Shown: one piece after another, positions 4,177 to 56,520 of the stretch | How positions within the stretch are numbered: the first letter of the stretch is position 1 | Layout of the letters: each line of letters starts with the position of its first letter | IMG/VR virus record: IMGVR_UViG_3300012920_000023 | Location: 1-64,000 of that record | DNA: 64,000 nt | Source of the DNA: a virus | Direction: 5' to 3' (one strand) | Program-made: the position numbers and the translations under genes | The notes under the pieces: generated by a model | Told to the model about the DNA's origin: nothing | Seen by the model: only the letters and a program-made list of their open reading frames with translations | Databases searched by the model: none

Positions 4177-4192
4177 ATGCACGCATGTGCAC
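4177..4192. promoter_or_regulatory. 16-bp parS-like palindrome, copy 1
   Basis: ATGCAC-GCAT-GTGCAC inside a 41-nt alternating purine/pyrimidine tract. Confidence 0.6.
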
Positions 4193-4476
4193 ATACGCAT
4201 GTACGCATACGCATTTCATCTTATACTATCCGGATTTTTTAGGCCGTATTTTAGGGCCGAATATATTTACATGGGGTACTAAGCGACCCCTTAAAACCCT
4301 CAAATCAAGGGTTTAGTCAAAAAAAAGACAGCCCCCAAGTAGGCGTTTTTACTACACTTTTTCAACTAGTTTTAAAATAGGAGAAAGTTTTATTTTACTT
4401 TGACTATACGGTGTGCCTATACTGATTAAGTCATTAGGGCACAGCCCATTCACTATAGCAACTAAAGGAGTTGAAA

Positions 4477-5409
4477 ATGACCCCCGATAAACGCCAAAAA
4501 TTACAAGCCTTATTATCAGAGGAATCATATACGGTAGGAGTTGAGGTTGAACAACGAGGAATACCCCGTAACTCAGGTCGATGCCTCATTGAAATCAACA
4601 ACCTCATCAACGAGCATGCTGGGAGCCGATACTCGAAAAAGCGATTCAAGCAAGTATCAGACGGTTCAATCGATGGCTATGATGGCTGTGAGTTTGTAAG
4701 CGGTATCATGCATGGGCAACGTGATATGGAAGTCATTCAACAATCAGTGAGACTCATTCGTGAGCATGGCGGTCGCCCTCACATTTCATGCGGAATTCAC
4801 GTTCATGTTGACGGCTCAAGGTTTTTGGCTAACCCCAAAGCCTTAATCAGACTAGTCAAGTTGGTTGATCGTTATGAGACTCACATGTATCACGCTCTTC
4901 AAGCGGACGCTCTTACAAGCGGTCAAGACCGTTCAGTTCACTTTAGACCCTGCGGTCGTAAAGGTTGGTCAAGACCCGTTGAGGCGACCCTTATTGACCG
5001 ACTTGACGCTCTAGGTAAGAACCCGACCATAGACCAAGTAAGGGACGCTTGGTATAGTGGCCCCGAGGGCGGATCATGGCGGACTAAGTATGATGATACT
5101 AGATACCGCTTGCTCAACCTACACTCCTTATTTTATCAAGGGACTATTGAATTCCGTTGCTTCAATGCAACGGTTCATGCAGGCCGTATCAAGGCTTATA
5201 TTCAACTAGCCATGCTCATTACGGCTCAAGCCTTATTGACGAGTAGGGTTGTGAGAGGTAAGCGTTCATTTGACCCGACCAAGGCTCATTATGAAGTGAG
5301 GACTTGGTTACTCAAGTTAGGAGCCATCGGTGATGAGTACAAAACCATGCGGTTACTATTGACCCGCCACTTAGAGGGCAACGCTTCATGGCATAGAACG
5401 GCCCGTTAA
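4477..5409 (+). CDS. Putative amidoligase (COOH-NH2 ligase type 2)
   Basis: GVEVE, SDGSI, EFVS, SCGIHVHVD, RYRLLNL and GTIEFR motifs typical of the Amidoligase_2 family. Confidence 0.85.
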   Translation: MTPDKRQKLQALLSEESYTVGVEVEQRGIPRNSGRCLIEINNLINEHAGSRYSKKRFKQVSDGSIDGYDGCEFVSGIMHGQRDMEVIQQSVRLIREHGGRPHISCGIHVHVDGSRFLANPKALIRLVKLVDRYETHMYHALQADALTSGQDRSVHFRPCGRKGWSRPVEATLIDRLDALGKNPTIDQVRDAWYSGPEGGSWRTKYDDTRYRLLNLHSLFYQGTIEFRCFNATVHAGRIKAYIQLAMLITAQALLTSRVVRGKRSFDPTKAHYEVRTWLLKLGAIGDEYKTMRLLLTRHLEGNASWHRTAR

Positions 5410-5764
5410 AGGGCTTTAGCCGGATTAATAGGGCTTAAGGGCTATGATGATATAGGTTGGGTACTAAAGAGGGCACAGAGGCTAAAATAAGGCTCATTAA
5501 GTATGACTTGATAGGTTGACTTGATGAGTCATTCACTCAGTCCTACTAAACCTGACTGAACAGCACCATATAGCAATAGCCCTATCCTTATGGTGCTTTG
5601 CCGGCCCACAGCACCATTGATGTGGCCTTATTTCGGGCATATTTGCCGGTATCAAAAGGACTAGCCCCATAGAACTGACCGACTCCCGTTTCAGTGATCC
5701 GTTCTTTTAAAAAATTGCCCTTATACACCGTTCAATTTCCATGAAAAAAGGGGTTAGTTTGCAT

Positions 5765-5826
5765 GGGGTGTTGATGAGGGTGTTGATAGGGGATGTTGAT
5801 ATGGGGTGTTGATAGGGGGTGTTGAT
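5765..5826. repeat. Five tandem GGG(T/AT)GTTGAT units
   Basis: 11-13-nt units seen directly between convergent genes. Confidence 0.85.
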
Positions 5827-6218
5827 TAGGTACCGAACTTAATGGCCTTGATTAGAGTGTCTTTTAAAATCTTTTTTAAGTGCTTGGGTTGTTTGATGAA
5901 ACGCTTTGGTAATTGGTTAGCGTCGAGATGCTTCATGACTGTACGCCCATGTAGAGTGCTAGGGTCGGATGAGAAATAACGATCAGTCTGCCCAAAGGCT
6001 TTGCTTAGGTTATGTTTACTCCCGGGGTTTTGAGCGATGAGAGCGTCTTTCTTAAACTTTTCATAGTTGTTACTTAACTTGATATAGAGGTCGACTTGTT
6101 TTTGGCCATCGAGTCTATATAGCCGTTCAAGGTCATTAAGCCATGCGAGTGCTTGGCTTTTCGCATTGGTTTTCTTCTGCATAGATTCGATAAGTTGAAT
6201 ACTTTGTTCTTTATTCAT
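5826..6218 (-). CDS. Basic hypothetical protein, putative head-internal protein
   Basis: Leader MNKEQSIQLIES nearly identical to that of the 7400 ORF; Lys-rich body. Confidence 0.7.
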   Translation of the reverse strand: MNKEQSIQLIESMQKKTNAKSQALAWLNDLERLYRLDGQKQVDLYIKLSNNYEKFKKDALIAQNPGSKHNLSKAFGQTDRYFSSDPSTLHGRTVMKHLDANQLPKRFIKQPKHLKKILKDTLIKAIKFGT

Positions 6219-6371
6219 GAGTCATACTTTCTTTAAGAGAGATTAAGGTGAGTGATTAACCCGGGGGTGCTAATGGAGCCGGGTGAACATTTTTTAATTT
6301 TTGGTCGGTCGAGTGTCTTTGACTATCAGCAACACCTACAAAACCGCTAGGCTATCCGGCCTGCTTAGGGT

Positions 6372-7184
6372 TTAAAACAGTCCGCCTCTGCTGTTGTTCG
6401 ACAGAGGATTATGATCCTTATTGATCTCTCCATCTTTTCTCTGAACTTCTCTAATTTTTAGTACAAGTTCCTTGAGGGATAAGCCTTTATTTTTAGCATA
6501 CCCGATTAGGGTTTTGGACTTCCCCATCACAGACCGTGAGACTGAGAACGAGTATTTGCGGTCTCTGTCCATCTTGATTTTAAGTTTCTTTGTACTAAGA
6601 GGTCTCTCTTGAAAGAGGTAGACGAGTGTCGTTCGACTTGAATCGAAACTAGAGGGTTTGCCGAGGATTTTGTTGAGTGCGACTCTTGCAGATCTAAACC
6701 CTTTTGAGTCCACGGCGTTCGCTTCATCAAGGCTATCCATAGCCTCCACTGCTTCTAAGAGAGCATTTTCAAGGATGTTAATTGCTTCATACACACCCTC
6801 TTTTTTTGGCCCGATGTTATTCATCTTACTGTACGGGCCATTTCTTCCGGTATAGCAGAGTTGCTTTATTCGATCCATGAGGGACTGCGTGGTGAACTGT
6901 CTTCTGTCCAATCTTGTTCGGCTTTTGCGTTGTCCTTGTGCTTTGTCGATGATGATCCCTTGATCGGGTTTTGCTGTGTCTGATACGACCACACTGAGTC
7001 TGTACCCATCTTTAAAGTTATAGTTTAACCGGTTCTTGCGGTTGCCTGTGATTTGGCCTTTTCCGAAAAAACTATTCAACTCTCGCTCGATCATTCGGAC
7101 AACTGCGGAAGTTGACGAACGGTTTTGGGTTAAGTTTTTTTGATCGATAGGAATGTTCCGATTTAACGCTTCTCGAATCTGCAT
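6372..7184 (-). CDS. Basic hypothetical protein
   Basis: AAGGAG RBS; two K/R-rich halves joined by YEAINILENALLE, which resembles the N-terminus of the 8008 ORF. Confidence 0.75.
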   Translation of the reverse strand: MQIREALNRNIPIDQKNLTQNRSSTSAVVRMIERELNSFFGKGQITGNRKNRLNYNFKDGYRLSVVVSDTAKPDQGIIIDKAQGQRKSRTRLDRRQFTTQSLMDRIKQLCYTGRNGPYSKMNNIGPKKEGVYEAINILENALLEAVEAMDSLDEANAVDSKGFRSARVALNKILGKPSSFDSSRTTLVYLFQERPLSTKKLKIKMDRDRKYSFSVSRSVMGKSKTLIGYAKNKGLSLKELVLKIREVQRKDGEINKDHNPLSNNSRGGLF

Positions 7185-7399
7185 GGTCTGCTCCTTAATG
7201 GCGTAAGATTGTTCATAGTACGTTCTTTCTTGGTCAAATGGAGATTTTATTTTATTTCAACCGGGCTTGGATTTCAATCTTTTGGTTTTAGATAAGCCTT
7301 TGACTATCAGCAAATGGGTAAAATCCGAACACCTTGACGGGTGGGTGCTTGGGCGTTTAGAATCTCTCTACCTAAAAGACATGAAAGAGCAGGACTATA

Positions 7400-7756
7400 A
7401 TGAACAAGGAACAGGCAATATCTTTAGTTGAGAGTTACCTCGATGACTTAAAGCGGATCGAGAAAGATCATCCTAAGCGTGCTAAAAAGGTAAAGGCGGT
7501 GTTTGGCCGTGAACCGGATAAGACCGTTGCAGGAGGTGCGATTATTAAATATTTTGCGAAAAAAGAGGTCGGCACTCCGATGACTTTTATGCTTTTCGTA
7601 GGGCAGGATGACATAGAGATCAGCAACCCTAATCGTGCAATCAAGACTGCTTTAGGTAAGCCGACACAAGGCAACTTCCCGGCACGTGTCCCGTTTGACG
7701 ATTTCAAGAAGAGCCGAAAGATGCAGGCTACACTTAAAAAGTATTTTGGCAGATAG
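7400..7756 (+). CDS. Basic hypothetical protein, putative head-internal protein
   Basis: Leader MNKEQAISLVES; Lys-rich body. Confidence 0.75.
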   Translation: MNKEQAISLVESYLDDLKRIEKDHPKRAKKVKAVFGREPDKTVAGGAIIKYFAKKEVGTPMTFMLFVGQDDIEISNPNRAIKTALGKPTQGNFPARVPFDDFKKSRKMQATLKKYFGR

Positions 7757-7766
7757 GAGACATAAA

Positions 7767-8021
7767 GTGAGCACTCCCCCGAATGTTGCCGATTTTATAC
7801 GAGGCTTGGCACGCTTGATTAATGAAACGGATGTTGAGATTGATGCCGGTGGTGTTGACATTGGGGTCTACAGTCGTTCAAGTGGTCGCTACCTTGGAGC
7901 GGTCACCGTTGAGGACGATTCGGTTGACTTCTATGTGAGTACAGAGGACAGCAGTCCGGATGTGAGTGTCTTTCTTGATCAAAATCTAGAAAACGAGGAG
8001 GATGAAGATGAACCTGTATGA
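7767..8021 (+). CDS. Acidic hypothetical protein (GTG start)
   Basis: AGGAG RBS before GTG at 7767. Confidence 0.65.
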   Translation: MSTPPNVADFIRGLARLINETDVEIDAGGVDIGVYSRSSGRYLGAVTVEDDSVDFYVSTEDSSPDVSVFLDQNLENEEDEDEPV

Positions 8022-8319
8022 AGCAATCGAGATACTTGAGGGTCGGCGAAATGCATGGCTCAATCTCCAACAGAATATCGGTGTTATCGGGGGTCGTATG
8101 AAAAAATATGGCCCATACGGAATAAAGATCATTGGCCTATCGTTCAGTGGACTCAAGAAGTCCGTTGAGAAGATGGGTGGACAGTTTAGGCTCAAGAAAA
8201 TCAAGGGTCGCAATGTGGGCACAGTGAAGTTCGGCGGATATGACTTTAACGTCGTTCATGAGCCGGATGTCTCATCGGGCGAGGGAGAATTAATTGTGTT
8301 TTCAGACGGTACGTTGTAG
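8008..8319 (+). CDS. Basic hypothetical protein
   Basis: GAGGAGG RBS; leader MNLYEAIEILE. Confidence 0.7.
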   Translation: MNLYEAIEILEGRRNAWLNLQQNIGVIGGRMKKYGPYGIKIIGLSFSGLKKSVEKMGGQFRLKKIKGRNVGTVKFGGYDFNVVHEPDVSSGEGELIVFSDGTL

Positions 8320-8415
8320 AGTAATAAGACACATTTGAACAACAGACGGGGCGTGAGTATCTTTGCGGATGGGTTGAACAGTAGAACACCTTAACCCTTT
8401 TACAAAGGTGCTACC

Positions 8416-8679
8416 ATGAAACCAAAAAAAATGACTGTTAGGGAAATGGATAGGGTCAATACCTTGATTGATCACTCCTCTCGCATTGACCGGCTTAACC
8501 TAAGCCAAAGGGAGCGTGCCTTGGCTTACTTAATGTTCATCGTTGAACGTAATGCAAGCGAGGACTTAAAGGTATACGCTAATCGATTCGATGACCTTGT
8601 TCGCCATGCTCAAAAGACGGAGATCTTGATTAAGATAAGGGAGTGTGCCTTGGCAGTTAGGCGAGAGAATGGCTCTTAG
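8416..8679 (+). CDS. Hypothetical protein
   Basis: 87-aa ORF; AAAGGT RBS. Confidence 0.65.
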   Translation: MKPKKMTVREMDRVNTLIDHSSRIDRLNLSQRERALAYLMFIVERNASEDLKVYANRFDDLVRHAQKTEILIKIRECALAVRRENGS

Positions 8680-8990
8680 CGTTCGGGCATCCAAGTGGCG
8701 GTTTGACCTCGGTGGTAACGGGGGAGCATCCGGCCTAAGTACGTTAAACGGCTATCGCCCTCTCGCTTCATGCGGTTGACCGCTTTGCCTTGCTCTAAGC
8801 CGATAACTTTACCGTTAGGCATCTTGAATACGAGTATGTTTTTTGCGTTGCTACGGGGGACGGAGTTATTAAACATGCTCTGTAATGCTTTAACATCACG
8901 GGCTACCGATCCGTAAACTGATGGCCTCTTGATGATACGGTCGGCAAGGCTAGTTGATTCGTAAACTTCTAATAAGTGATATAGGCTCAT
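8676..8990 (-). CDS. Basic hypothetical protein
   Basis: AGGAGG RBS; leader MSLYHLLEVYES. Confidence 0.75.
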   Translation of the reverse strand: MSLYHLLEVYESTSLADRIIKRPSVYGSVARDVKALQSMFNNSVPRSNAKNILVFKMPNGKVIGLEQGKAVNRMKREGDSRLTYLGRMLPRYHRGQTATWMPER

Positions 8991-9025
8991 TGTATGCCCT
9001 CCTTTTCATTTTGCTTATTATAAGC

Positions 9026-10150
9026 CTAGGCTTTGTATTGATCAACCCTTGTCGCCGGTTCTAAGGCCGGATTATGAGTGAATGTGAACCATACCTTAAC
9101 TAGAGCCATATCTTTAGTGATTTGACCATTCTTGAGGTTTTTAGTGATAGGTTGAATGTCGATGATATCTTCATCGGGGAGAGTCTCGGCATACTCAAGG
9201 GTTACCCACCGGCGTTTAAAGTGTGATGAAGTATTTCTCGGCGTATATGTGAATGATCTAGACTCGTCTTCCGTACCCTCGGTTTGAATGGGGTCATTTT
9301 GGGGGCTTGTTTTGACCGGTGTCGCATCTTCTGAGGATTCATGATAATAAGTAGTGATTCGGTTCACACTCGGCTTAGAACGCTTAATACGTCGTTTCCT
9401 AGTTTTGCGTTTACCGGTAGCCTTGATAAAGGGTAAAGGCTCAACTGAGTTTTTCTTTTCAAACTCACCTCTTTGGATCTTCTGTAAAGCCGTTAATGCT
9501 ATGATCACCATAATCAATGGGGCTTCGCCGATACTCTTATCACGGATCATATCTGAGGTAGCCATATACTCAAAAATGTTACAGTTGTTCGGCACTTCTA
9601 AGCCAACCCAAGGGGTGTGGGCTTCATCGATTACTTGAACAAGATACCCATCTTCATGTTCCATCGGAATCAAGAGGGTTTGATCAAGGTCGGGTTGGTT
9701 TGATCGAGGGGTCATGCTGTGATCAGTGATCAAGATGCCCATAATATCGCTGTTATCTGTACCCTTTCTTTTAACTTCAAAAGAGAAGTTGCACTCGATG
9801 AAGATCTGACCGTTGGGCATCACCGGCTTGGCGATGATCGTTTCCGGATTGTCTAAACAGAGGTTTATGATGCTCTCAGTCAAGCGGATTCGTTGCCGGC
9901 TTGCGTGGACTCTTCTTATCCCCATGTAGTAATAGAATAGCGTTGTGAACGTCTTGAGGTGATTATTGTACTGCTCAGTCGTCCATCTGTTGAGTTGATC
10001 CGTCATGTACTCAATGTTCTCGGTCATCATGTGATCGGCCCACACTGAGTCATTTTTTTCCTCTAAGTTGAGGATTCCATTTTGACTCTCAATGAAGCGT
10101 TTCCACTTTTGCTGTAAGTATCGTTCTTTACTGACCTTGTTCATCTTCAC
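9026..10150 (-). CDS. Hypothetical early protein with a basic patch
   Basis: 374-aa ORF behind promoter TTGACT-N17-TACAAC (10181-10209); KRKTRKRRIKR segment. Confidence 0.8.
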   Translation of the reverse strand: MKMNKVSKERYLQQKWKRFIESQNGILNLEEKNDSVWADHMMTENIEYMTDQLNRWTTEQYNNHLKTFTTLFYYYMGIRRVHASRQRIRLTESIINLCLDNPETIIAKPVMPNGQIFIECNFSFEVKRKGTDNSDIMGILITDHSMTPRSNQPDLDQTLLIPMEHEDGYLVQVIDEAHTPWVGLEVPNNCNIFEYMATSDMIRDKSIGEAPLIMVIIALTALQKIQRGEFEKKNSVEPLPFIKATGKRKTRKRRIKRSKPSVNRITTYYHESSEDATPVKTSPQNDPIQTEGTEDESRSFTYTPRNTSSHFKRRWVTLEYAETLPDEDIIDIQPITKNLKNGQITKDMALVKVWFTFTHNPALEPATRVDQYKA

Positions 10151-10228
10151 TCCCTTTGAGTAAATATTAAATGATGATCAGTTGTACCTCGCCTTAAAGT
10201 TATAGTCAAGTAAAAAATATATTCTTTT

Positions 10229-11020: not shown

Positions 11021-11362
11021 TTACGAGTCTGCTTTCTTAGACTCCAACTCTGCCTCTATTTTGGCAAGTCGAGTATAAACTTCGCTAGGTGTGATACCGG
11101 CTTGGATTGTTGTCTCTACACGGGCTAATCTTTCGCTCGCATCGTTATCTTTGGGCTTAAGTTGGTTGTTGATCACACCAAAAACTTCAATCCGACCCTG
11201 CCGGTTGCCCTCTATCAAATGCTTGCAGTCATCTAGTTGATGTTGTAGTGCCTGCAATTTGGCTTCAATCTGCGTTACCTGCTTTGAGAACGACCATAGG
11301 AGTCCTGCCCCGGCGACGAGTGCCGGCATGACCTCTTTGATAATATCTGTAAAGCCTTCCAT
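11021..11362 (-). CDS. TM plus coiled-coil protein, abutting the cyclase gene
   Basis: N-terminal hydrophobic helix then heptads; its TAA directly precedes the cyclase ATG. Confidence 0.7.
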   Translation of the reverse strand: MEGFTDIIKEVMPALVAGAGLLWSFSKQVTQIEAKLQALQHQLDDCKHLIEGNRQGRIEVFGVINNQLKPKDNDASERLARVETTIQAGITPSEVYTRLAKIEAELESKKADS

Positions 11363-11442: not shown

Positions 11443-11458
11443 GTGCACATGCGTGCAC
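11443..11458. promoter_or_regulatory. 16-bp parS-like palindrome, copy 2
   Basis: GTGCAC-ATGC-GTGCAC, intergenic. Confidence 0.7.
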
Positions 11459-12133: not shown

Positions 12134-12141
12134 GAGGTCAC

Positions 12142-15747: not shown

Positions 15748-16392
15748 ATGAAAAATGACTTTGATGCCTTTACTGAAAAAGTGGGCAACCGGTTGATCAA
15801 GAACGTAAAAGATTTGAGTGACGCACTCGAGTGCAGTGCCTATAATCGTCTGCTCCCAAACTTACAGGTGGCGGTGACAAACCTACCTAAGTATTTGGGC
15901 GATAGGGCTTATGAGAAAATGGAGAAAATGGAATCATCTGCATGGAGGGACTTTTCCGGAGTAAAAGCGAGTCCTATGATTTCACCTAATCTGCTGTTTG
16001 ACTTGGGGAGTAAGATCATTAGTTACCCATTTGTAATGAGTGATTTCATCGAAGCCTTAGAAGCCGGCCATGAATACGGTTGCAGGTGTCTATATGAGTC
16101 CGAAGCAAAGGGCGATTGGGTCAACGGAGTAACCGATAAATATGAAGTTGATTTAATCAAGCCTAGAGGTGATTTAAGCAAGCGTTTTAAGGTCAGAGTA
16201 AGCGTTAGAGGGTGCGAGTGGACATACTCATCTCATGACGATAATGATTCGGCAGAGTCTCATAGGCAGGCGATACTGACTCGTTTCCTTGATTGGAAAG
16301 AGGAGTACCCGGCGACTTTTGATCAATGGGATTATGCAGAGGCATTTTTAGAGGACATTAACATCACTGCCGAGGTGATTGAGTATCATTAA
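15748..16392 (+). CDS. Hypothetical protein
   Basis: 214-aa ORF; AAGGAGG RBS. Confidence 0.8.
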   Translation: MKNDFDAFTEKVGNRLIKNVKDLSDALECSAYNRLLPNLQVAVTNLPKYLGDRAYEKMEKMESSAWRDFSGVKASPMISPNLLFDLGSKIISYPFVMSDFIEALEAGHEYGCRCLYESEAKGDWVNGVTDKYEVDLIKPRGDLSKRFKVRVSVRGCEWTYSSHDDNDSAESHRQAILTRFLDWKEEYPATFDQWDYAEAFLEDINITAEVIEYH

Positions 16393-16472: not shown

Positions 16473-17252
16473 ATGGTTAGTTCATTGGGCGGTGATTATA
16501 CCGAGTTAGAAATCGATTTGATTGACCACAACCCGTGGAACCCAAATCAAATGAACGATAAGCAGTTTGAACGGCTCATGAGAGAGATCGGCGAGTCCGG
16601 CATGATAGCACCTATACAGGTTGTTCCGATGGATGGCCGGTATAGGATCATCGGAGGTGCACATCGTTTTCAAGTCTGTCAACTATTAGAGTATGAACGC
16701 ATTCCTGCGGTGATTTTGACCGATGAGAAATGGCAAGATGAGGGTCTTCAAAAGTTAGAAACGGTCAGATTGAACATCATTAAAGGCGGTCTAAATGCTG
16801 AAAAGATGATTAACCTTTATAATGACGTTTCCGATCAGTTTGGCGACGAGGCTATGTCAGACCTATTGGGCTTTACAGACGAGCGTGCATTGGCCAAAAT
16901 AATAGGCGACGTTAAGCGTAGTATGAAAGACGCCGGACTGCCTGCGGAGGCTATTGAGCAACTAGAGCATGAAGCGGACAAGATAAAAGACTCTAGTAAG
17001 TTCCTTGACCGCTTAGGGGCTATTCTAGAAAAGATATATGCACAGTATGGTGACTCAGTTGACAACCGTTTTATCTATTTTGATTGGGGTGGGAAAAAGC
17101 ACCTTTATTTGGAAACCACCGGGCCGACTTTTAAGCGAGTTCAGAAAGTGATGGCACACATTAAAGATAACGATCTGAACGCAGACAAGTTCTTTAGAGA
17201 CTTGATGGACAAAGCCCTCCGAGACTTAGAGCAGGAGTCCGACGATGGGTAA
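16473..17252 (+). CDS. ParB/Srx-domain protein
   Basis: IDHNPWNPN, G.IAPIQV, YRIIGGAHRF and LN.IKG motifs; HTH-like EAMSDLLGFTDERAL. Confidence 0.85.
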   Translation: MVSSLGGDYTELEIDLIDHNPWNPNQMNDKQFERLMREIGESGMIAPIQVVPMDGRYRIIGGAHRFQVCQLLEYERIPAVILTDEKWQDEGLQKLETVRLNIIKGGLNAEKMINLYNDVSDQFGDEAMSDLLGFTDERALAKIIGDVKRSMKDAGLPAEAIEQLEHEADKIKDSSKFLDRLGAILEKIYAQYGDSVDNRFIYFDWGGKKHLYLETTGPTFKRVQKVMAHIKDNDLNADKFFRDLMDKALRDLEQESDDG

Positions 17253-17904
17253 CAGAGACATACCGGTAGACGTTCAGCATATAAGACATAAAAAGTTTAA
17301 GGTGCTTCCCTTTTACCAAGAGATTCTTACTATGTTTGAAGAGGGTCAATCGCTCCGCACAGTGGCAAAGTTCTGTCGTGCGAGGGGCTTTTTCGTTGAG
17401 GATGGAGACAGTACTCTACTTTCGGGCTTAAGTCGCCTTAGATCAGATGAAGTCACCGGCTACAACAAGGAGTTTAAAGCACCTCAGAGAGCCAAGGAAA
17501 ATCAAGATTTGATTGATCCGAAGTCTTTGATTGAAATAGACACGACCGATGAGTTGGAACGCTTATATCGATTGCAGTTAGGTCGGGTCAACATGGCGGT
17601 TAAGTTTGAACGCAAGATGAAAGTCCTCAACAGAAATATCGTCCGTGAGGTCGAGGCTTGTGCCTCTATTCTTCAAAGGAAACATGAGGTCGAGAATGTT
17701 GATGGAAACAATGGCATTGTAAATAATCTTACAGTTCGCCCGGAGATAGAGTTAAACTTAGGGGAACAGAGCACTAAGGCTTTAAGTAGTCCGGAGAGTG
17801 CGAGTAGAGTCCTCTCCGTAGCGAAAGGGTTAGCACGTCTTGGCTTGGGTGCTCCAACTGAGTCGGGCACTATTGATGTGCTTGACGAAACTAAGGAGAC
17901 TTAA
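17245..17904 (+). CDS. Putative terminase small subunit
   Basis: Position directly before TerL; N-terminal HTH-like GQSLRTVAKF; helical body. Confidence 0.55.
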   Translation: MGNRDIPVDVQHIRHKKFKVLPFYQEILTMFEEGQSLRTVAKFCRARGFFVEDGDSTLLSGLSRLRSDEVTGYNKEFKAPQRAKENQDLIDPKSLIEIDTTDELERLYRLQLGRVNMAVKFERKMKVLNRNIVREVEACASILQRKHEVENVDGNNGIVNNLTVRPEIELNLGEQSTKALSSPESASRVLSVAKGLARLGLGAPTESGTIDVLDETKET

Positions 17905-17905
17905 A

Positions 17906-19966
17906 ATGTCGGTCATAGTGAACAGCAACGGTCGGGCACATAGTCAACGCTCTAGTGAAGAAGAGTTGGCCTTAGTTATGGCCGAGTTAGAAAACCTATC
18001 TCCCGAAGAACGTGCTCTTTTAGAAGCGACGATGAAAGAGTTGCACTCCGGACAGAATGAGATCGTTAAAGCAATCTCAAAACAGAGATGGCGATGGACT
18101 CCGGTTGACATGGACACATTTCTCGATGATCCCTATTACCTAGGCGAGTCCTCAAAGACACTTTATCCGAAAATTAGAGCCGATTTGAAAGAAGCCTTAA
18201 CCTCCGGTCGGTATCGTGAGATGGTACTCACCGGCGGTATAGGGTACGGGAAAACAACCTTTATTTCATTTGCAGTCGCCCGGATGCTATATGAGATATC
18301 CTGCTTAAGAAACCCACAGGAATCTTATGGTCTGAGTGCAGGGTCTGAGGTCGTTGTGGCTCTTATTTCAAAGAGTCTGCACGTTGCTCGTCAAGTCATG
18401 AAAACTGCTGTAGAAGATAAGTTAAAAATAAGCCCATACTTTCAACAGCATTTTAAAGGCCGGGCAAACCGTGATGTTACGTCATTCCCACACAACGTCA
18501 TGTTAGTAATAGGCTCATGCAACTCCGAGCGTGTCTTAGGTATGAATGTTATCGGAGGTGCGATGGACGAGGCCAACTTTATGACCACTAAAGGACAGGT
18601 GATCAAAGGGCAGGCCGGGGCTAAAAAAAGCATTGCTCAGTATGATTTGGCCGAAAAGGTTTATGCGTCGATTGTTCGTCGTATCAAGTCTCGTTTTTTA
18701 AAGTCTGCAAATGACCTGCCCGGACTTATGGTGCTTGCTTCATCGGCGACTACTGTAAACTCTTTCACAGACAGAAAAATTAAGGCTTCGACAAGTGATC
18801 CCACGGTATTTGTTAGGGATTATGCGAATTGGGAGGTAAAACCGCAGGAGAATTTCTCCGGAGAGAGGTTTGAAGTAGTGGTCGGAAATGGTGGTTTACG
18901 CTCAAAAATACTGAACCCGGATGCCACAGACTCAGAGCGTCGATACTATACAGAGGCCGGGTGTCGTATAATCAATGTGCCTATAGAGTATGTAGAGGAC
19001 TTTGAACGTGATCTAGAATCGGCGATAAGAGACATTGCCGGTATCGCCACACATGCCATATCTGCCTACATACACAGGCTTGAAAAGATTGAAGATGCGG
19101 TGGTGAGATACGATCATGTCCAAGGTTATCAAGCGATTGGCCATCCCTGTACGTCTGATGAATACACAATGAACACTAACTTTGATTTCATGTGGGGTCG
19201 TTTCTGCCGTAAGGGTAAACGCCGTCTCAAAGGGGGGCATGAGGAATATGTTTGGCGTCCTAAGAACGCACCGGGGAAAGCAAGATATATTCACATAGAC
19301 ACTTCTCTGTCCGGTGACTCAACGGGCTTTGTTATGGGTCATATAGACAGACATATTGAAGTAATTCGACGGAATGAGAGTGGTGAAGAGTACTCTGATG
19401 TTGCACCTTTTATAGTTATTGATCTTCTTTTGAGAGTAAACCCACCCGACGGCGATCAAATATTCCTCCCGGACGTTCGACGTATGGTTTATGAACTGCA
19501 AGAGCATGGGTTTCATATTGCAGGCATGTCCTGTGATTCTTATCAGAGTGCAGAGATGATCCAACAGATGAAGAGGCGTGGGGTTAAAGCAGATGTTTTG
19601 TCTGTTGATAGAACCACTGATCCTTATGACGCTTTGAAGTCTGCACTCTATGAGGATAGAATCGCATTTTATGAGTATGCTCCTTTAATCAACGAACTTA
19701 AAACCCTTGAATATGACTCAATAAGACGTAAAGTAGATCACCCGGTTGCCGGCTCCAAAGATGTGGCCGATGCTCTCGCAGGTGTAGTTTATGGCCTTAT
19801 GCAGATGAGACAATCTGCACCTCTTTTAATCAATCAGAGTAAAGGGAGAGTTGAAAATATTTCGTGGATAATGGAAGATAACAAAGTTCCTTGGAAAGCA
19901 GGCAACCCTTTGCCTGCAAAATATGACAATGACGCTAACTCTCCACTCCCAATTATAATAGGTTAA
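17906..19966 (+). CDS. terL: Terminase large subunit
   Basis: Walker A GGIGYGKT, Walker B MDEANF, nuclease motifs HIDTS..D.TG and GSKDVADA. Confidence 0.92.
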   Translation: MSVIVNSNGRAHSQRSSEEELALVMAELENLSPEERALLEATMKELHSGQNEIVKAISKQRWRWTPVDMDTFLDDPYYLGESSKTLYPKIRADLKEALTSGRYREMVLTGGIGYGKTTFISFAVARMLYEISCLRNPQESYGLSAGSEVVVALISKSLHVARQVMKTAVEDKLKISPYFQQHFKGRANRDVTSFPHNVMLVIGSCNSERVLGMNVIGGAMDEANFMTTKGQVIKGQAGAKKSIAQYDLAEKVYASIVRRIKSRFLKSANDLPGLMVLASSATTVNSFTDRKIKASTSDPTVFVRDYANWEVKPQENFSGERFEVVVGNGGLRSKILNPDATDSERRYYTEAGCRIINVPIEYVEDFERDLESAIRDIAGIATHAISAYIHRLEKIEDAVVRYDHVQGYQAIGHPCTSDEYTMNTNFDFMWGRFCRKGKRRLKGGHEEYVWRPKNAPGKARYIHIDTSLSGDSTGFVMGHIDRHIEVIRRNESGEEYSDVAPFIVIDLLLRVNPPDGDQIFLPDVRRMVYELQEHGFHIAGMSCDSYQSAEMIQQMKRRGVKADVLSVDRTTDPYDALKSALYEDRIAFYEYAPLINELKTLEYDSIRRKVDHPVAGSKDVADALAGVVYGLMQMRQSAPLLINQSKGRVENISWIMEDNKVPWKAGNPLPAKYDNDANSPLPIIIG

Positions 19967-21517: not shown

Positions 21518-22277
21518 CCCCAAGCAGGCCGAACGAGTGTTTGAAGACACTTATGAAGACAGAATTCGTGCACTCGTGTGCACATGTAATGAAAAAGGTT
21601 GGTCTTTAGTATCAACTAAAGCGGACTCTGCTCATGTAATAGAGTCGGATGGTCGTTTGGCAAAACGGAGTTATACTTTCACCGAATCGGGTATTGATTG
21701 GGGCAGAGCATATTACTTGGAAACTTTCCCATCATCGGATGCTGTAGGTTTAGTGTCCAAGACGATCAGAGATTTGGCTAAGAATATACTTGAAAGCGAT
21801 GATCCTAAAATAAACCGGGAGAGCCTAGGTCAACTTAGTCAACACGCCAAAGACTATATGTCAGTTCCGAGTGCTATGAGTGTACTCTCCGGCGGAGAGA
21901 TGGTCGAGTTCTATGAAGAGAACAAGGAATCAGTCCGAAAATCATGCCGGGGAAACCTTGGTGACATAGAGGCTTCAATCAAGATTACTTACTATACTAA
22001 TATGAGTCAAAAAAGAATGGTTGAGCATCTTGATGAGATCAAGGCGACTTTAACTACTTGTGCAAAGGCTCTTGACACATTAGAATGTCATGGCGACGGC
22101 AATATCTTTTCACATATCGCAAACTTTAAGGAGAATGCGATTAAGGCTTCCGCTATAATCAAGCACTCCGGGTGTAGTCCGGAAAATATGGCGAAATCTG
22201 CCGATTACTTTTCAAGATCTTTATTAACTGCTAATATTTTAAAGGACTACGCTGTCCGAACAAACGAAGGGAATTAA
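21507..22277 (+). CDS. Hypothetical head-region protein
   Basis: Lies between portal and core genes. Confidence 0.7.
   Translation: MLIDPKQAERVFEDTYEDRIRALVCTCNEKGWSLVSTKADSAHVIESDGRLAKRSYTFTESGIDWGRAYYLETFPSSDAVGLVSKTIRDLAKNILESDDPKINRESLGQLSQHAKDYMSVPSAMSVLSGGEMVEFYEENKESVRKSCRGNLGDIEASIKITYYTNMSQKRMVEHLDEIKATLTTCAKALDTLECHGDGNIFSHIANFKENAIKASAIIKHSGCSPENMAKSADYFSRSLLTANILKDYAVRTNEGN
21568..21583. promoter_or_regulatory. 16-bp parS-like palindrome, copy 3 (intragenic)
   Basis: GTGCAC-TCGT-GTGCAC. Confidence 0.65.
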
Positions 22278-30134: not shown

Positions 30135-30425
30135 ATGATGAAGAATAAGCAGTTAACGATAGGATTGGGCGATGCCCTTTCACGCATTTTGAACGTGGAG
30201 TTGGACAGGCGTGCTCGCATGAGATCACCTACTGAGTCAATCGAGGAGGTGAAGATGATTGTCGAGGCATTAAATGTTCACGAAATTCCTTTAAATATGT
30301 CATGCGAAATCGACCCCGGTGAGGGCGTCGGCGTGTTTGAAACGTCAGTTAAAACCTCCTGTTGCCGTATTAATAACGGTGGCCGGGTGCACACGAGTGC
30401 ACCAATAGGAGGGAGTCGGTCATGA
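30135..30425 (+). CDS. Hypothetical protein
   Basis: Operonic ORF; contains palindrome copy 4. Confidence 0.65.
   Translation: MMKNKQLTIGLGDALSRILNVELDRRARMRSPTESIEEVKMIVEALNVHEIPLNMSCEIDPGEGVGVFETSVKTSCCRINNGGRVHTSAPIGGSRS
30387..30402. promoter_or_regulatory. 16-bp parS-like palindrome, copy 4 (intragenic)
   Basis: GTGCAC-ACGA-GTGCAC, the exact reverse complement of copy 3. Confidence 0.65.
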
Positions 30426-39536: not shown

Positions 39537-39812
39537 ATGATGATTAAAAGCAGAAAAATGGTGGTATTTACGGTATCCTTAGTGATGTTTCTTGGGAACT
39601 ATCTACTTGGTTCTCCGCTTCCGGAGGATCAAGTACAGCAGTTTTTAGTGTTGATCGTAGGTTGGTTAGTTGCACAAGGTGTTGCTGATGCAGGCACGCA
39701 GGGGCAGGTGAATTCTGCCCTCCGGGCCTCTAAGCAAGGACAGCAGATTATAGAAACAGTTAAAAGCCTTAAGAACGAGCAAGAATCTATCGATGCGTCC
39801 AAAGACAAGTGA
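39537..39812 (+). CDS. Holin-like protein
   Basis: KSRK, two TM segments, GWLVAQGVAD. Confidence 0.6.
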   Translation: MMIKSRKMVVFTVSLVMFLGNYLLGSPLPEDQVQQFLVLIVGWLVAQGVADAGTQGQVNSALRASKQGQQIIETVKSLKNEQESIDASKDK

Positions 39813-39827
39813 CGCACACATGTGCAC
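39812..39827. promoter_or_regulatory. 16-bp parS-like palindrome, copy 5 (2 mismatches)
   Basis: ACGCAC-ACAT-GTGCAC, just upstream of the MTase. Confidence 0.55.
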
Positions 39828-45841: not shown

Positions 45842-46303
45842 TTAACAGTTTTGATCTTTATAGACTTGAATATCGTCTAAACGGTTCTCAAGGTTTTCAC
45901 CCTTGAGCCATTTGTTAAACTGCTCTTCATTACCTCTAAACTTGTGAATCTCTAGCCTGTCACTCTCAAGGGGATAGCCCTCAACTTGCCATTCAATTTG
46001 TGCACTCGTGTGCAGGCGTTTCATAAGATCATTGCGGTACTTAATCTGACCGGCGGTCAACATGGACTTCATGTGGTTGAACGTATATTCGGTCACAGTC
46101 GTTTCGATTCCTCCGTGAGCGTTCTTATAGACTTGCGTCTCTTTAATATCTCCCGTCTTTGAGCAGACGGTGTATCTTGACGAGATATAAACCTCATCCG
46201 GTTCGCAGTTGCAGGCATAGCCCTCGCTTGCATGTGTTCGCTCTCCACATTCATAGCAGAATCTGTAGTAAGAGTTCCAATCGTCGGGTACGTTGTATGG
46301 CAT
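45842..46303 (-). CDS. Hypothetical early protein (start MPYNV), Cys-rich N-terminus
   Basis: The track ORF overlaps the promoter at 46338-46366; AAAGGA RBS. Confidence 0.7.
   Translation of the reverse strand: MPYNVPDDWNSYYRFCYECGERTHASEGYACNCEPDEVYISSRYTVCSKTGDIKETQVYKNAHGGIETTVTEYTFNHMKSMLTAGQIKYRNDLMKRLHTSAQIEWQVEGYPLESDRLEIHKFRGNEEQFNKWLKGENLENRLDDIQVYKDQNC
46000..46015. promoter_or_regulatory. 16-bp parS-like palindrome, copy 6 (1 mismatch, intragenic)
   Basis: GTGCAC-TCGT-GTGCAG. Confidence 0.6.
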
Positions 46304-46308
46304 CTTTA

Positions 46309-46551
46309 GTTCCTTTCTGAACCATATTGGTGAATACAACATAACTCTCCCGTTGATGATAGTCAAGATAAAAATAAAAAAACTTTTAATCACGGGCCTT
46401 TAATGGTGCTCTATATTTTGGAGCACCAATAGGGCTTATATAAGTGTTCTCAAGCCGGTTCGATTATTTGATTCTTATCTTATTTTTTACTTGACTAACA
46501 TGGGGGAAAGAGTTATATTTGATCATCAATCAATATGGTTCAGAAAGGAAC
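46309..46551. promoter_or_regulatory. Divergent pair of early promoters with identical 21-nt leaders
   Basis: TTGACT-N17-TATGTT (-) and TTGACT-N17-TATATT (+); CAATATGGTTCAGAAAGGAAC at 46309-46329 (-) and 46531-46551 (+). Confidence 0.8.
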
Positions 46552-52790: not shown

Positions 52791-52817
52791 TTAAGTCTCC
52801 TTAAAATTAAATAGAAA

Positions 52818-55196
52818 TTAAACAACTAGGCAACCGTAGTCCTCTTCACAGTATATAAGCGTATCTGTAATAGATCCAAAGTCTACTTCAAAATGAGTAC
52901 CCTCCACAAAGGTTGTGGCCACTGAACCGTAATCTATGGTCTCTAAAACACGTCCAAATATGATGAGATCACCGGACTCAATGGCGACTGTGCTTGATAG
53001 ATAGTGGTCGCTTATAACAGGAACACTTCCGGACGTTGTTCCGGTGTCTTTTGTTGACGCAGTTCCTAGAGAGACAGGCTTATACTTATTAAGACTTGAG
53101 TCTGTAGTAAACTGTAATACCTGCCCGTTAGATGGAGCAGTTGAGTCCACGTCGGTTAGGTTTGCGGTAGAAACGCTTAGAGAGAGACTGATTTCATTAG
53201 CGGTATCATCATGGGCAAATGTAACCGAATCAACCCCTCCACTGCCATCGCTAGTGTTTCCACTTATCAAGGCGTTAGCCACGGCATCTCTAGCCTCTTC
53301 ATCGGTATAACTAGTCACATCTCCGGGTACAAACTTTGAGGTTCCGTCCCACACTAATGACTGCCCCGATGTAGGTGCAACAGAGGTGATGTCAACGTCA
53401 GAGAGTTTATCAATAGAGGGGAGTGCAGTGAGGTTGACTCCGGAAACCGCCGGTAGACCGCTTGAGACCAATTTGACCACGTTGTCTGTGTTTGTGCCGG
53501 TATCGAGTGATGCCGAAGTTCCGAGAGTTGGAAGCCCGGATAAATCACTGTAAGCGAGCGTTGCGTTTACAAAAGCAGACCCACTATACCGGAGGACTTG
53601 CCCTGCATTTGACACGCTAAGTGTTGAAAGCGTTACATCGTTTAACTCGCCGACTGACTCGTTGCCCAAATTGACCTCAGATGGAGCGTTAACCCAAGTG
53701 GCCGTTCCGTTAGAGTTGGCCTGTAGCAGTTGCCCTGCGGAGCCGTTTGAGGATGGGAGTGTCCATGCGTCGCTAATCTTCACAGCCCCGGAGTAAATCT
53801 CAAGTCCGGTTGTTTCTGTGCCATTTACGGGAACTTTAAGTTTGATTGATCCGTCTGTGCTTGAAGCGGTGGTGTCCGATGCACATGACTCAATAACACC
53901 GTATGATACTAACGTGCTCCCTCCGGAGTCCTTTCCGGTGAACTTTATCTGACCTACAACCTCGTCTGTGGAGACAGTTGCGTCTGTCTGTAGATCAAGG
54001 GTTGGCCCCGTTGTGTTTGACGCTTCTGTGCTCTTAAGCGTGAGGGTTGGCTCTGTGTTACCCTCAGAGGACATATTTAAAACTAAGCCCACTCCTGCCA
54101 CGCTATCAAGCGAGATATCGGATGCTCCGAAGTATATTTTCCCTCCGGACTTCAAGTAAAGATCTTGCCAAACTGAACTTGAAGAACCGAGTGTGTTGGT
54201 TCCTGCGTTTGGCAAAAGGTTTCCTGTCGTTAAGGCGTTTGAAGTGCTTGCTCCACGCCCGGTGACAGAGTCAAGGGTGTCTGAAAGTGCAGTTTTATCT
54301 GCCCAAGAAGTTGTGCCACTTCCATTTGTAGTTAATACCTGCCCGTCGCTTCCCGAATCTGTGGGCAGAGTCCATGTATTGCTAATTTTAACGACTGCAT
54401 CCGATGACCCTACTGAATAGACAGACAGGGCAACTAGACTGCCTGCTGTACCTAGGACGTTTAGATCAATTTGACCCGATTCAAGATCTTCACCAACATC
54501 TTTTGCTTTGGCAGTTAGGCTTGCAAATGTCTTGGTTGTGCCTCCGTCATTATCTCCCTTAAAGTTTAAGATACTAACGGAGTCATTGTCGCTTAAAGTA
54601 GCAGAGTTATATATCTCAATCGTATGACCGCTAATTTTTATTCGGCCACTTGTATCTGTGTTTCTAAGCCCTTTATAGAAGTAGACTTCACCGTCACTAA
54701 GAGCCACATCTAAAATATTGGTGATGGTCGCACCGTTGCCGGCTTGCAGAAAGAATGAATCGTTTCTAGGGTTCGCTAGACCGCCCGAAGCGACAGAGTT
54801 TGTGTGTGCACTTACTGCACAGAAGCCTAGCCTAAATCCCTCAATGCCGGATTCGCCTATTTGAGTGTTTGATGTACCGTGATTAAACTGCACGACGCTA
54901 CTTGTAGGGTCATTTCCCCGGAGGGTTAGGCGATTCCATGTAGAACCACCTGTTCTTGAGACTCTGATCTCTTGTCCGTCGATAACTGTTGCACCATCGC
55001 CTCTAGTGGCGGTGATCTTACCGGCATCTCCATCACTGACTCCGTTTGTATGAATAGAGTCTGTAACTTTGAGACCGCCCACCTCAGTTGTGGCCTTAAA
55101 CGTATGTGCAGAGTTCAGAGTATTTACGTCGCCGGAGTTCAAAATGAACCGTCGGCTTTGACTGCCCTGTAACCCCTTGTCTGTATAATTCGCCAT
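52818..55196 (-). CDS. Fibre-like structural protein (start MANYTD)
   Basis: GGAGGAG RBS; repeated TLP...G..GQVL...G.G...W and L.DV.......GQVL.Y motifs. Confidence 0.75.
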   Translation of the reverse strand: MANYTDKGLQGSQSRRFILNSGDVNTLNSAHTFKATTEVGGLKVTDSIHTNGVSDGDAGKITATRGDGATVIDGQEIRVSRTGGSTWNRLTLRGNDPTSSVVQFNHGTSNTQIGESGIEGFRLGFCAVSAHTNSVASGGLANPRNDSFFLQAGNGATITNILDVALSDGEVYFYKGLRNTDTSGRIKISGHTIEIYNSATLSDNDSVSILNFKGDNDGGTTKTFASLTAKAKDVGEDLESGQIDLNVLGTAGSLVALSVYSVGSSDAVVKISNTWTLPTDSGSDGQVLTTNGSGTTSWADKTALSDTLDSVTGRGASTSNALTTGNLLPNAGTNTLGSSSSVWQDLYLKSGGKIYFGASDISLDSVAGVGLVLNMSSEGNTEPTLTLKSTEASNTTGPTLDLQTDATVSTDEVVGQIKFTGKDSGGSTLVSYGVIESCASDTTASSTDGSIKLKVPVNGTETTGLEIYSGAVKISDAWTLPSSNGSAGQLLQANSNGTATWVNAPSEVNLGNESVGELNDVTLSTLSVSNAGQVLRYSGSAFVNATLAYSDLSGLPTLGTSASLDTGTNTDNVVKLVSSGLPAVSGVNLTALPSIDKLSDVDITSVAPTSGQSLVWDGTSKFVPGDVTSYTDEEARDAVANALISGNTSDGSGGVDSVTFAHDDTANEISLSLSVSTANLTDVDSTAPSNGQVLQFTTDSSLNKYKPVSLGTASTKDTGTTSGSVPVISDHYLSSTVAIESGDLIIFGRVLETIDYGSVATTFVEGTHFEVDFGSITDTLIYCEEDYGCLVV

Positions 55197-55295
55197 GACG
55201 AACTCCTCCAAAAGACAGTTTAATGGTGTTTGGCTAAAGATTGTACCACTCGGCACATTGAAAGTTAAACCTATAAAGTTTTATTTTATTTTTAC

Positions 55296-55324
55296 TTGAC
55301 TATACGAGTGTCTTAATATAGTAT
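55296..55324 (+). promoter_or_regulatory. Early promoter
   Basis: UP element plus TTGACT-N17-TAGTAT. Confidence 0.8.
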
Positions 55325-55364
55325 AACCAAAGTTGATTGAGATAAAAAATCCAAGGAGGGTTTT

Positions 55365-56162
55365 ATGAGTAAGAGAAAATCACATAACGACGAATGGTAT
55401 GAAGAGTTTGAGGGCACAGAAGATACCGGATTCGATCCGGATTACTGCTACGAGTGCGACTCATTCCGATGCGAATGTTATGAACTTCTTGACGGTGATT
55501 ACAACCAAAGAGGTCGGCAACAGAACTTGTTTGATGGCCTTTTTGATAGTTATCAAAGTGATGATTACAATCAAGATTATGGCTATGATGAAGATGATGA
55601 ATATGATGAACAGCCGGATAACGACTACAGTCAAGTTGTAGAGTATCAACGCAGACCGTTGAGTCAACCTTTATGGAGTCAGAACTCATTCAGACGCTAT
55701 AGCATCAAGCCTTTAAATAGAGTTGATCCTAATGAACGGGTTTTATACTTCGCATTTGGCTCAAATATGGAAAAGAGCCAAATGTTAAAGCGTTGTCCAT
55801 CGGCTCAAGAGGTTGAGGGCAAGTATACACTTGATGGTTATCGATTGACTTTCTGCGGTCATTCAAACAAGTGGGGTGGTGGAGTAGCCACAATCATAAA
55901 AGAGCGTTTTGATATAGTCCTAGGTCGGTTATTTAGCCTAACTTGGAGCGATGTATATAAACTAGATGGCTTTGAGGGTCATCCATACGTTTATAAGCGT
56001 CAGTATGTCACTCTTACCGACGGTCAAAGGGCATTAACTTACATCAAGCCGGTTAAGAATAATGAGTCTAAACCAAGCCTTTCATATTTCACAACAATCG
56101 CAAGGGGCTATCAACAAGTGGGGTATGAGTTAGATAAACTTGTTGACTCATCTAGCAAGTAA
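55365..56162 (+). CDS. Gamma-glutamylcyclotransferase (AIG2-like) with acidic N-terminal extension
   Basis: LYFAFGSNM..QM..RCPSA, GVATI, LDGFEGHP..YKR. Confidence 0.88.
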   Translation: MSKRKSHNDEWYEEFEGTEDTGFDPDYCYECDSFRCECYELLDGDYNQRGRQQNLFDGLFDSYQSDDYNQDYGYDEDDEYDEQPDNDYSQVVEYQRRPLSQPLWSQNSFRRYSIKPLNRVDPNERVLYFAFGSNMEKSQMLKRCPSAQEVEGKYTLDGYRLTFCGHSNKWGGGVATIIKERFDIVLGRLFSLTWSDVYKLDGFEGHPYVYKRQYVTLTDGQRALTYIKPVKNNESKPSLSYFTTIARGYQQVGYELDKLVDSSSK

Positions 56163-56234
56163 GACGCATACTCTCTTCTGCTTTTAGATAAAATGCAGTC
56201 AATGTTGAAAAGCGAGAGAAAGGTCTAACTTATT

Positions 56235-56501
56235 ATGAGTGCAAGTTTCTACGAAAATGCCGATATAACCGTATTTGGAGTACAATTTTCAAACTCCACA
56301 CCTCTTCAAATAATCCAATACTTTATGGATAAATCGATTTTTAAAAAGTATAACACCATTGAAGAATATATGGTTCATCTTGAGAGGTTTATGGAAGTTC
56401 CGGAGCGAGTAGAGGGCGAATCAGATCGTGATTTTGTGGAGCGACTTTTTGATGAGTTCTACAGACTTGGCATTCTAAAGATAGACGAAGTAATACATTA
56501 A
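56235..56501 (+). CDS. Hypothetical protein
   Basis: 88-aa ORF. Confidence 0.65.
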   Translation: MSASFYENADITVFGVQFSNSTPLQIIQYFMDKSIFKKYNTIEEYMVHLERFMEVPERVEGESDRDFVERLFDEFYRLGILKIDEVIH

Positions 56502-56504
56502 TCA

Positions 56505-56520
56505 GTGCACACGTGTGCAC
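56505..56520. promoter_or_regulatory. 16-bp parS-like palindrome, copy 7 (perfect)
   Basis: GTGCACACGTGTGCAC, intergenic, upstream of the RNR gene. Confidence 0.7.

Follow-up and report, generated by a model that had tools for sequence, protein, structure and literature searches.

An evenly spaced series of 16-bp palindromes along a marine phage genome and in its relatives: putative docking sites for a phage-encoded dimeric protein

Dispersed dyad repeats of phage genomes have been printed once, in 2015, for the Cluster O mycobacteriophages, and were left unexplained. Corndog and its relatives carry a 17-bp dyad repeat, TGTTCGG-N3-CCGAACA, in 34 copies, for which the authors predict a dimeric DNA-binding protein with a role other than transcription initiation; these phages seem to be non-temperate, and encode a protein with a ParB-like domain as well as glycosyltransferases (PMC4351075). 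Here we describe a 16-bp palindrome that recurs as an even lattice along IMG/VR virus record IMGVR_UViG_3300012920_000023, a contig of 113,463 bp (G000, estimated to be 63% complete) whose first 64 kb make up the window analyzed. The phage appears to be a myovirus, with weak tail matches in PHROG, and is contained in marine metagenomes of three studies (public runs). As in Cluster O, one invariant dyad repeat is found genome-wide, in intergenic DNA, close to gene starts and within genes, with most copies away from promoters. The two arrays differ in sequence, in geometry (6-N4-6 here versus 7-N3-7) and in density (15 copies in 113 kb, about one per 8.5 kb, versus about one per 2 kb). The Cluster O paper contains no analysis of evenness and reports no core shared across distant phage lineages.

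Sites bound by proteins of the ParB family are the other close comparison. KorB and its 16-bp operator OB, of the IncP plasmid RK2, act over kilobases via a ParB-family sliding clamp; some OB sites are 4-10 bp from promoters and others are distant (PMC11790492). The phage series is similar in that a palindrome of about 16 bp is spread round the replicon, with some copies near promoters and some far from them. However, KorB has canonical cytidine triphosphate (CTP) motifs, a helix-turn-helix (HTH) domain and the partner KorA, whereas the ParB-like protein of this phage lacks the CTP motifs and no KorA-like partner was identified. Also in contrast to OB, the palindromes in the window are not beside -35 boxes, and in some phages the lattice occurs without ParB. 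Noc of Bacillus subtilis is a ParB paralogue without ParA that occupies many dispersed chromosomal palindromes, the Noc-binding sites or NBS (PDB 7ol9, 7nfu), and the phage protein matches Noc and ParB best, in both sequence and fold. Unlike the phage palindromes, NBS do not form an even lattice, and Noc is a cellular, membrane-tethering regulator of division.

Perfect copies of GTGCAC-N4-GTGCAC are present at 11443, 21568, 30387 and 56505 of the window and in none of 100 dinucleotide-preserving shuffles. Copies with one mismatch (4177 and 46000) and two mismatches (39812) were also identified, and a further two-mismatch match at 1855 is probably due to chance; in all, there are eight matches with up to two mismatches where 1.83 are expected. 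A preliminary description of the window had listed the same seven sites, a very low chance expectation, and gaps that spread them evenly, and in each of these respects it was correct: the coefficient of variation (CV) of the gaps in the window is 0.19 (P = 4e-4). A scan of the rest of the contig showed that the series continues, with copies at 65890, 77738, 88880, 96855, 102823 and 105779. The motif is better written RYGCAC-N4-GTGCRY (16-mer forms GTGCACACGTGTGCAC and GTGCACACGAGTGCAC), because the copies vary only by transitions in the two outermost positions and in their 4-nt centre. On the whole contig there are 11 exact sites versus 0.07 expected (gap CV 0.26, P = 5e-5) and 15 with at most one mismatch versus 2.1 expected (CV 0.33, P = 4e-5), while random points give a CV of about 0.93. 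The bare core GCAC-N4-GTGC occurs 16 times versus 1.7 expected. No gap in the set with at most one mismatch exceeds 11.8 kb (P = 0.007). Evenness remained beyond chance (0 of 20,000 draws) when the null model was constrained to the observed numbers of intergenic and coding sites.

The gene context of the copies was taken from a simple map of open reading frames. The copies at 4177-4192 (ATGCAC-GCAT-GTGCAC) and 11443-11458 (GTGCAC-ATGC-GTGCAC) are in divergent intergenic regions, as are those at 88880 and 96855 beyond the window. The copy at 21568-21583 (GTGCAC-TCGT-GTGCAC) occupies codons 26-31 of the gene after the portal gene, and that at 46000-46015 (GTGCAC-TCGT-GTGCAG) is inside a minus-strand gene (45842-46393); beyond the window, 65890, 77738, 102823 and 105779 are intragenic. 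Start codons follow within 17-42 nt of three copies: 30387-30402 (GTGCAC-ACGA-GTGCAC), in the last 40 nt of one gene with the next ATG 19 nt on; 39812-39827 (ACGCAC-ACAT-GTGCAC), which overlaps a stop codon, with the next ATG 17 nt on; and the fully symmetric intergenic copy at 56505-56520 (GTGCAC-ACGT-GTGCAC), upstream of a class II ribonucleotide reductase gene. A weak copy at 15821-15836 (ACGCAC-TCGA-GTGCAG, one mismatch to RYGCAC-N4-GTGCRY) is inside the gene upstream of that for the ParB-like protein. Over half of the copies in the window are thus inside genes or overlap them. Three had originally been assigned to coding sequence; this applies to 21568 and 46000, but 39812 overlaps a stop codon and 30387 involves only the end of a gene. 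The argument drawn from this, that the sites are not ordinary operators, holds up, as a grid of protein docking sites fits better and intragenic copies are kept. In L062, the near relative used for this comparison (9 kb; portal 81% identical, DNA about 70%), the copy at 21568 persists as GTGCAC-TCGC-GTGCGT within a conserved coding stretch. In the region 4177-4235, copy 4177 is followed by a run of ACGCAT and GTACGCAT units near an amidoligase gene, possibly a cluster of extra half-sites.

A search of IMG/VR for the exact 16-mer GTGCACACGAGTGCAC gave seven single matches only and did not recover relatives, and 20 kb of the window, used as a nucleotide query against a phage collection, gave no match. 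Relatives were found through the large terminase, TerL (17840-19966, plus strand), and a 16-mer form of their palindromes is GTGCAATCGATTGCAC. Freshwater TerL relatives (55-60% identity, GC about 56%) carry RYGCAA-YCRR-TTGCRY, with 19 exact copies in 54 kb of G001; compared with the phage in the window, positions 6 and 11 have switched together from C..G to A..T, giving GTGCAA-N4-TTGCAC. Positions 4 and 13 are changed in G009 (GCGAAA-TCGA-TTTCGC). The metagenome contig L094 (15.9 kb) has 13 copies of TTGCAC-ACGT-GTGCAA (TTGCACACGTGTGCAA) in 16 kb. In the complete genome G011 (106.6 kb) we identified 23 exact copies of RTGCAA-N4-TTGCAY (CV 0.64, P = 0.014), and 37 with at most one mismatch (P = 9e-4) whose largest gap is 6 kb (P = 6e-4). 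A 179-kb phage contig, G013 (loci L231-L239), contains 42 copies of GCGACC-AYRT-GGTCGC, a form also found in G012 and G014-G016. The structural module of G013 is common with that of the phage in the window; its replication module is different, and it has no ParB_N.

Changes of the motif in relatives always strike both arms (positions 6 and 11, or 4 and 13). The consensus centres are palindromic (ACGT, TCGA, TTAA) and the half-sites vary independently, as in the AYRT centre of G013. Paired arm changes and palindromic centres point to two identical protein subunits on duplex DNA. We therefore favor, at slightly better than even chances, the reading that the palindromes are double-stranded docking sites for a phage-encoded homodimeric DNA-binding protein, the putative reader. 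Each subunit would read one 8-bp half-site, composed of RYGCAC and two further bases. A precedent is the Cluster O study, whose authors interpreted their 17-bp repeat in this way (PMC4351075).

The same symmetry would allow a hairpin in RNA or single-stranded DNA, with a 6-bp stem and a 4-nt loop, that might stabilize RNA between cistrons, serve as a terminator or insulator, or be recognized by an RNA-binding protein. T4-type phages have stem-loops of this kind in their PeSL cassettes, which combine promoter and stem-loop and are confined to early regions. In Cluster A mycobacteriophages, stoperators lack symmetry, and their orientation follows that of transcription (PMC4351075). Both resemble the present series in having many copies of one short site spread along a phage genome, frequently where the gaps between genes are short, but the site here is symmetric, often intragenic and evenly spaced. 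The asymmetry and fixed orientation of stoperators were not seen; the one trace of orientation is a weak strand bias of the 4-nt centre (7 of 8). An RNA-level role is suggested mostly by the relatives. Seven of the 13 copies in L094, those before the ParB and TerL genes among them, fit exactly into the gap from a stop codon 3-58 nt upstream (mostly 3-15) to the next start codon 2-12 nt downstream, and some are between the stop codon and the Shine-Dalgarno sequence. Seven copies in G011 are flanked by A5 and T5 runs and TTGACA boxes and resemble bidirectional terminators in early-gene cassettes. In G013, a copy either precedes a TTGACA -35 box by 2-12 nt or separates a stop codon from a GC-rich terminator; taking G011 and G013 together, many palindromes are 1-12 bp upstream of such a box. 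In the window, the copies at 30387, 39812 and 56505 have the short distances to start codons given above, and the loop would read ACGA on the sense strand in seven of eight cases. The phage also encodes a KH-domain protein of the KhpA/KhpB type (92 aa; contig positions 95481-95759, minus strand, L052:11481-11759; PF13083 at 2.7e-15), 50% identical in G003, the fold of which binds RNA or single strands.

Most features of the lattice argue against the hairpin, however. Independently varying halves around a palindromic centre indicate a dimer on double-stranded DNA rather than an RNA hairpin. In degenerate copies the stem would often be broken on the sense strand, by A/C mismatches in the case of 39812, 65890 and 77738, and G-U pairs are possible on the antisense strand only. 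Neither a conserved flank nor a T run follows the window copies, so that the combination typical of intrinsic terminators and PeSL (hairpin plus T run, in intergenic early cassettes) is found for the seven G011 copies only and not in the window. Between 33 and 65% of copies are deep inside genes, and even spacing would not be expected of RNA elements tied to gene ends. We consider a hairpin function very unlikely as the general explanation, although intergenic copies in L094, G011 and G013 may be used secondarily at the RNA level.

De novo palindrome searches in cultured phages carrying ParB homologues at about 30% identity revealed 17-38 copies of a GCAA core in each of five complete genomes, with even spacing in three. 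These three are Vibrio phage VH2_2019 (TTGCAATTAATTGCAA; 36 sites with at most one mismatch, CV 0.42, P<2e-5), Agrobacterium phage JP1 (TTGCAAACGTTTGCAA; 33 sites, CV 0.55, P = 2e-5) and Stenotrophomonas phage DLP5 (xTGCAATCAATTGCAx; 31 sites, CV 0.48, P<2e-5). Rhizobium phage RHph_Y1_11 has 29 sites of TGCAA-CAAA-TTGCA (at most one mismatch), and Pseudomonas phage BHU-17 has 17 core copies of GTGCAAGCGCTTGCAC versus 1.6 expected. Non-coding DNA is enriched for sites (17 of 36 in VH2_2019, where 6.9% of the DNA is non-coding), but despite this enrichment 33-65% of sites are deep inside genes. Three further Vibrio phages, 29Fa.3, vB_VhaS-a and PJ32 (two deposited as complete genomes), contain 17-26 copies of YGCAATTAATTGCR. 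Our literature search found no papers describing these lattice arrays in such phages. The JP1 motif has the same 12-bp core as the PurR operator of Escherichia coli, ACGCAAACGTTTGCGT. A possible explanation of this likeness is a LacI/PurR-type reader or mimicry of a host factor.

The preliminary description had proposed a ParB/Srx protein beside the terminase as the factor that loads at the sites. The protein itself is well supported: the gene at 16473-17252 (plus strand) encodes a ParB_N fold (PF02195 at 7e-11) and belongs to phrog_26387 (2e-44). An AlphaFold2 model (mean predicted local distance difference test score, pLDDT, 82) matches Noc, ParB and KorB with Z of 12-13 and a root-mean-square deviation (rmsd) of 1.8-3.3 Å over 92-126 residues. 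Residues 1-135 superpose at 2.6-3.3 Å, with the first helices of the DNA-binding region included. A helix pair (109-131 and 137-153) is HTH-like, but its alignments to the DNA-binding domains of ParB all exceed an rmsd of 8 Å, and Pfam detected no HTH_ParB. Matches to TIGR00180 (39.2 versus a cut-off of 58.45, N-terminal part only) and to the Noc family TIGR04285 (44 bits versus a cut-off of 315) fall below threshold. In the alignment to 4umk, the CTP motifs are replaced (QPR by NPN, GERRxR by GGAHRF and ENxQRE by LNIIKG), and the phage ParB-like family keeps W-N-P-N and H-R in their stead. The likeness of the site to parS, which had been taken to include the central hexamer, is reduced to length and dyad symmetry, since the CACGTG centre is particular to this phage; the centres of relatives are TCGA, TTAA or TCAA.

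Loading of the ParB-like protein at each palindrome, as at parS, OB or NBS, followed by sliding or spreading to coat the genome, would be in keeping with its fold and with the fact that all three of these sites are palindromes of about 16 bp. ParB and a GCAA/GCAC lattice are found together in about eight lineages: the phage in the window, the GC-rich clade, G011, L094, VH2_2019, JP1 with RHph_Y1_11, DLP5 and BHU-17. In G001, G003, G004, G010 and L094, the ParB start codon is preceded by a palindrome at a distance of 11-12 nt, and L010, L057 and L058 have one at the same offset before the ParB match. The TerL-clade relatives Colly_1 and Anamika have neither ParB nor lattice. Close relatives of the phage, with ParB 78-82% identical, are the 116-117 kb contigs that encode P0007 and P0013.

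Against this stand the lattices without ParB. We did not identify a ParB fold in 29Fa.3, vB_VhaS-a or PJ32: PF02195 gave no match at E<=1, and hhalign found no ParB match for the gene in the ParB slot of any of the three. Two unfiltered profile searches of all open reading frames of 29Fa.3 also found none, although the same searches caught weak ParB_N copies in BHU-17. The 239-aa slot gene of 29Fa.3 was considered as a ParB because of a GHHR-like string and rejected, as the string is not kept in two homologues and hhalign gave a probability of about 1%. Nucleotide similarity of 29Fa.3 to VH2_2019 covers only about 6 kb at 67% identity, so ParB was not lost recently. G005 and L064 likewise have no ParB where synteny would place it, and conversely, Arthrobacter phage Kitkat has ParB and no lattice. 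Motif absence at portal loci lacking ParB was not counted, because at this density 20-kb windows hold too few copies; some of these loci held two copies of another palindrome. Within the window, there is no strong palindrome near the ParB gene. The protein itself also fits poorly: apart from the replaced CTP motifs and undetected HTH_ParB, its putative recognition helix is acidic. Residues of helix 137-153 were examined as a determinant of motif class (Ala in this phage and L094, Arg in most GCAA phages), but the correlation is broken by L059, P0016-P0019 and others.

A different role is suggested by gene neighborhoods. In all five cultured phages inspected (VH2_2019, JP1, DLP5, Kitkat and RHph_Y1_11; L240-L244), ParB follows a glycosyltransferase of about 500 aa directly or after one small gene, and in four of the five it is one gene before TerL. 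The neighborhood looks like a DNA-modification cassette. Published phage ParB-like proteins activate thymine dioxygenases (5mYOX), have no obvious DNA-binding domain, and carry NTP-motif residues that are dispensable (PMC13229309). The present protein is similar as an orphan phage ParB fold near glycosyltransferases and terminases. However, no Tet_JBP dioxygenase gene was identified in nine genomes (G000, G011, G001, G003 and the five cultured phages), and PMC13229309 reports no dispersed palindromes. Of the original proposal, the docking grid on duplex DNA, with a function that depends on spacing, is supported. Co-occurrence with ParB is frequent, but the pairing is not obligatory, given the three Vibrio phages and Kitkat, and the protein has the ParB N-terminal fold, whereas its CTP motifs and DNA-binding domain are not canonical. 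We regard ParB as the loader at each site as rather unlikely; it is possibly a dispensable partner of the lattice.

Genes for replication and recombination follow the motif more closely. In a small panel of 11 genomes from related lineages (seven with a GCAA/GCAC lattice, four without), a superfamily 2 (SF2) helicase and UvsX are encoded in all seven motif genomes and in none of the others, and a small PD-(D/E)XK nuclease and DnaB in six of the seven. Between helicase and UvsX, a gene at contig positions 102949-103383 encodes an Xis/MerR-type HTH protein (phrog_19880), with a palindrome 126 nt upstream of its start. This protein is present in the GC-rich clade, including G005, which lacks ParB, and in VH2_2019, 29Fa.3 and DLP5. 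All lattice genomes examined encode the HTH protein, the ParB-like protein or both, and neither candidate is universal. A minor candidate is the 219-aa protein encoded between the ParB-like gene and TerL (17245-17904, plus strand). Its position is conserved, and it has an HTH-like segment by eye and no family match; from its position, we infer that it is the small terminase.

These genes raise the alternative that the sites serve DNA transactions, either as many packaging starts recognized by the small terminase or as direction-independent signals that control recombination or resection and seed recombination-dependent replication; the latter could be a palindromic, Chi-like signal or the target of a dimeric PD-(D/E)XK nuclease. 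Besides the co-occurrence just described, the module includes a Cas4-like exonuclease and RuvC-like and RusA-like resolvases, and even spacing suits a signal that has to be met soon from any random end. Motif phages fall in one TerL clade, each with an unannotated gene of 190-270 aa right before TerL, for which weak, sub-threshold HTH matches were obtained in 29Fa.3, in addition to the segment read in this phage. On the other hand, signals of the Chi type are short and lack symmetry, sites for small terminases normally occur in clusters, and Colly_1 and Anamika belong to the TerL clade without having the motif. We consider such a function improbable.

Several observations weigh against docking sites for a dimeric reader, the reading that we prefer. 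The HTH protein at 102949-103383 cannot be the universal reader, as JP1, RHph_Y1_11 and G011 do not have it, even at the syntenic place, and ParB fails in the same capacity because it is missing in the 29Fa.3 group. None of the proteins predicted to bind DNA sequence-specifically occurs in every motif genome. Because the panel is small and its lineages related, the perfect co-occurrence with helicase and UvsX may only mirror shared descent. Spacing is not clearly even in G001 (CV 0.70, P = 0.07) and not even in BHU-17 (CV about 1.0). Finally, the ideal site of the preliminary description has a symmetric centre, but the most frequent centre is asymmetric: ACGA, which 8 of 13 strong copies contain (21568, 30387 and 46000 in the window; 65890, 88880, 96855, 102823 and 105779 on the contig) versus about 3.4 expected from independent halves. 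Of the eight cases that can be oriented, seven have ACGA on the sense strand. This strand bias hints at a strand-specific component, and a purely symmetric dimer model leaves it unexplained.

If the palindromes are docking sites for a dimeric protein, selection would hold one site per 8.5 kb or so, with no gap above 11.8 kb. Cheap intergenic positions would be used where present, and elsewhere the site would be written into genes. Because the grid is kept even through genes, its function would rest on genome-wide coverage rather than on individual promoters. Most likely, the logic would be like that of KorB/OB or Noc/NBS, in which a site nucleates a complex that spreads over, slides along or bridges the neighboring kilobases. 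The complex may act on the replicating phage chromosome in silencing or timing, organization, or self-marking. Its reader would travel with the replication-recombination module (SF2 helicase, UvsX, DnaB and PD-(D/E)XK nuclease), and the candidates that can be named are the HTH protein at 102949-103383 and the ParB-like protein at 16473-17252.

Other annotated genes of the phage encode a DnaC-like loader, a DnaB-like helicase and a Toprim primase, in addition to TerL, ParB_N, class II ribonucleotide reductase, SF2 helicase, UvsX, the resolvases, the Cas4-like exonuclease and the KH-domain protein. No family annotation was obtained for g88030, g100589, g17245 and g15748. The palindromic hexamers TTCGAA and TGCGCA are absent from the 113 kb, versus 80 copies of TTTAAA, which looks like restriction-site avoidance.

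A broader conjecture, to which we give somewhat less than an even chance, is that of a widespread chromosome-tiling system, in which a reader co-inherited with the SF2-helicase/UvsX module, perhaps aided in most lineages by an orphan ParB fold, uses the GCAA/GCAC lattice to coat, organize or mark the genome. If true, the system would span marine myoviruses and cultured Vibrio, Agrobacterium, Rhizobium, Stenotrophomonas and Pseudomonas siphoviruses, and its presence in cultured phages makes it directly testable. What is new relative to the Cluster O array is the statistical evenness, the upkeep of sites inside genes, and a core that is recognizable across very different hosts and tail types. 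ParB should not be named the reader automatically, because the lattice survives without a ParB fold in one lineage. VH2_2019, with ParB, and 29Fa.3, without it, both have the lattice and provide a natural contrast. What reads a genome-wide lattice, and why a virus needs one, are thus questions that can now be addressed at the bench with existing phages.

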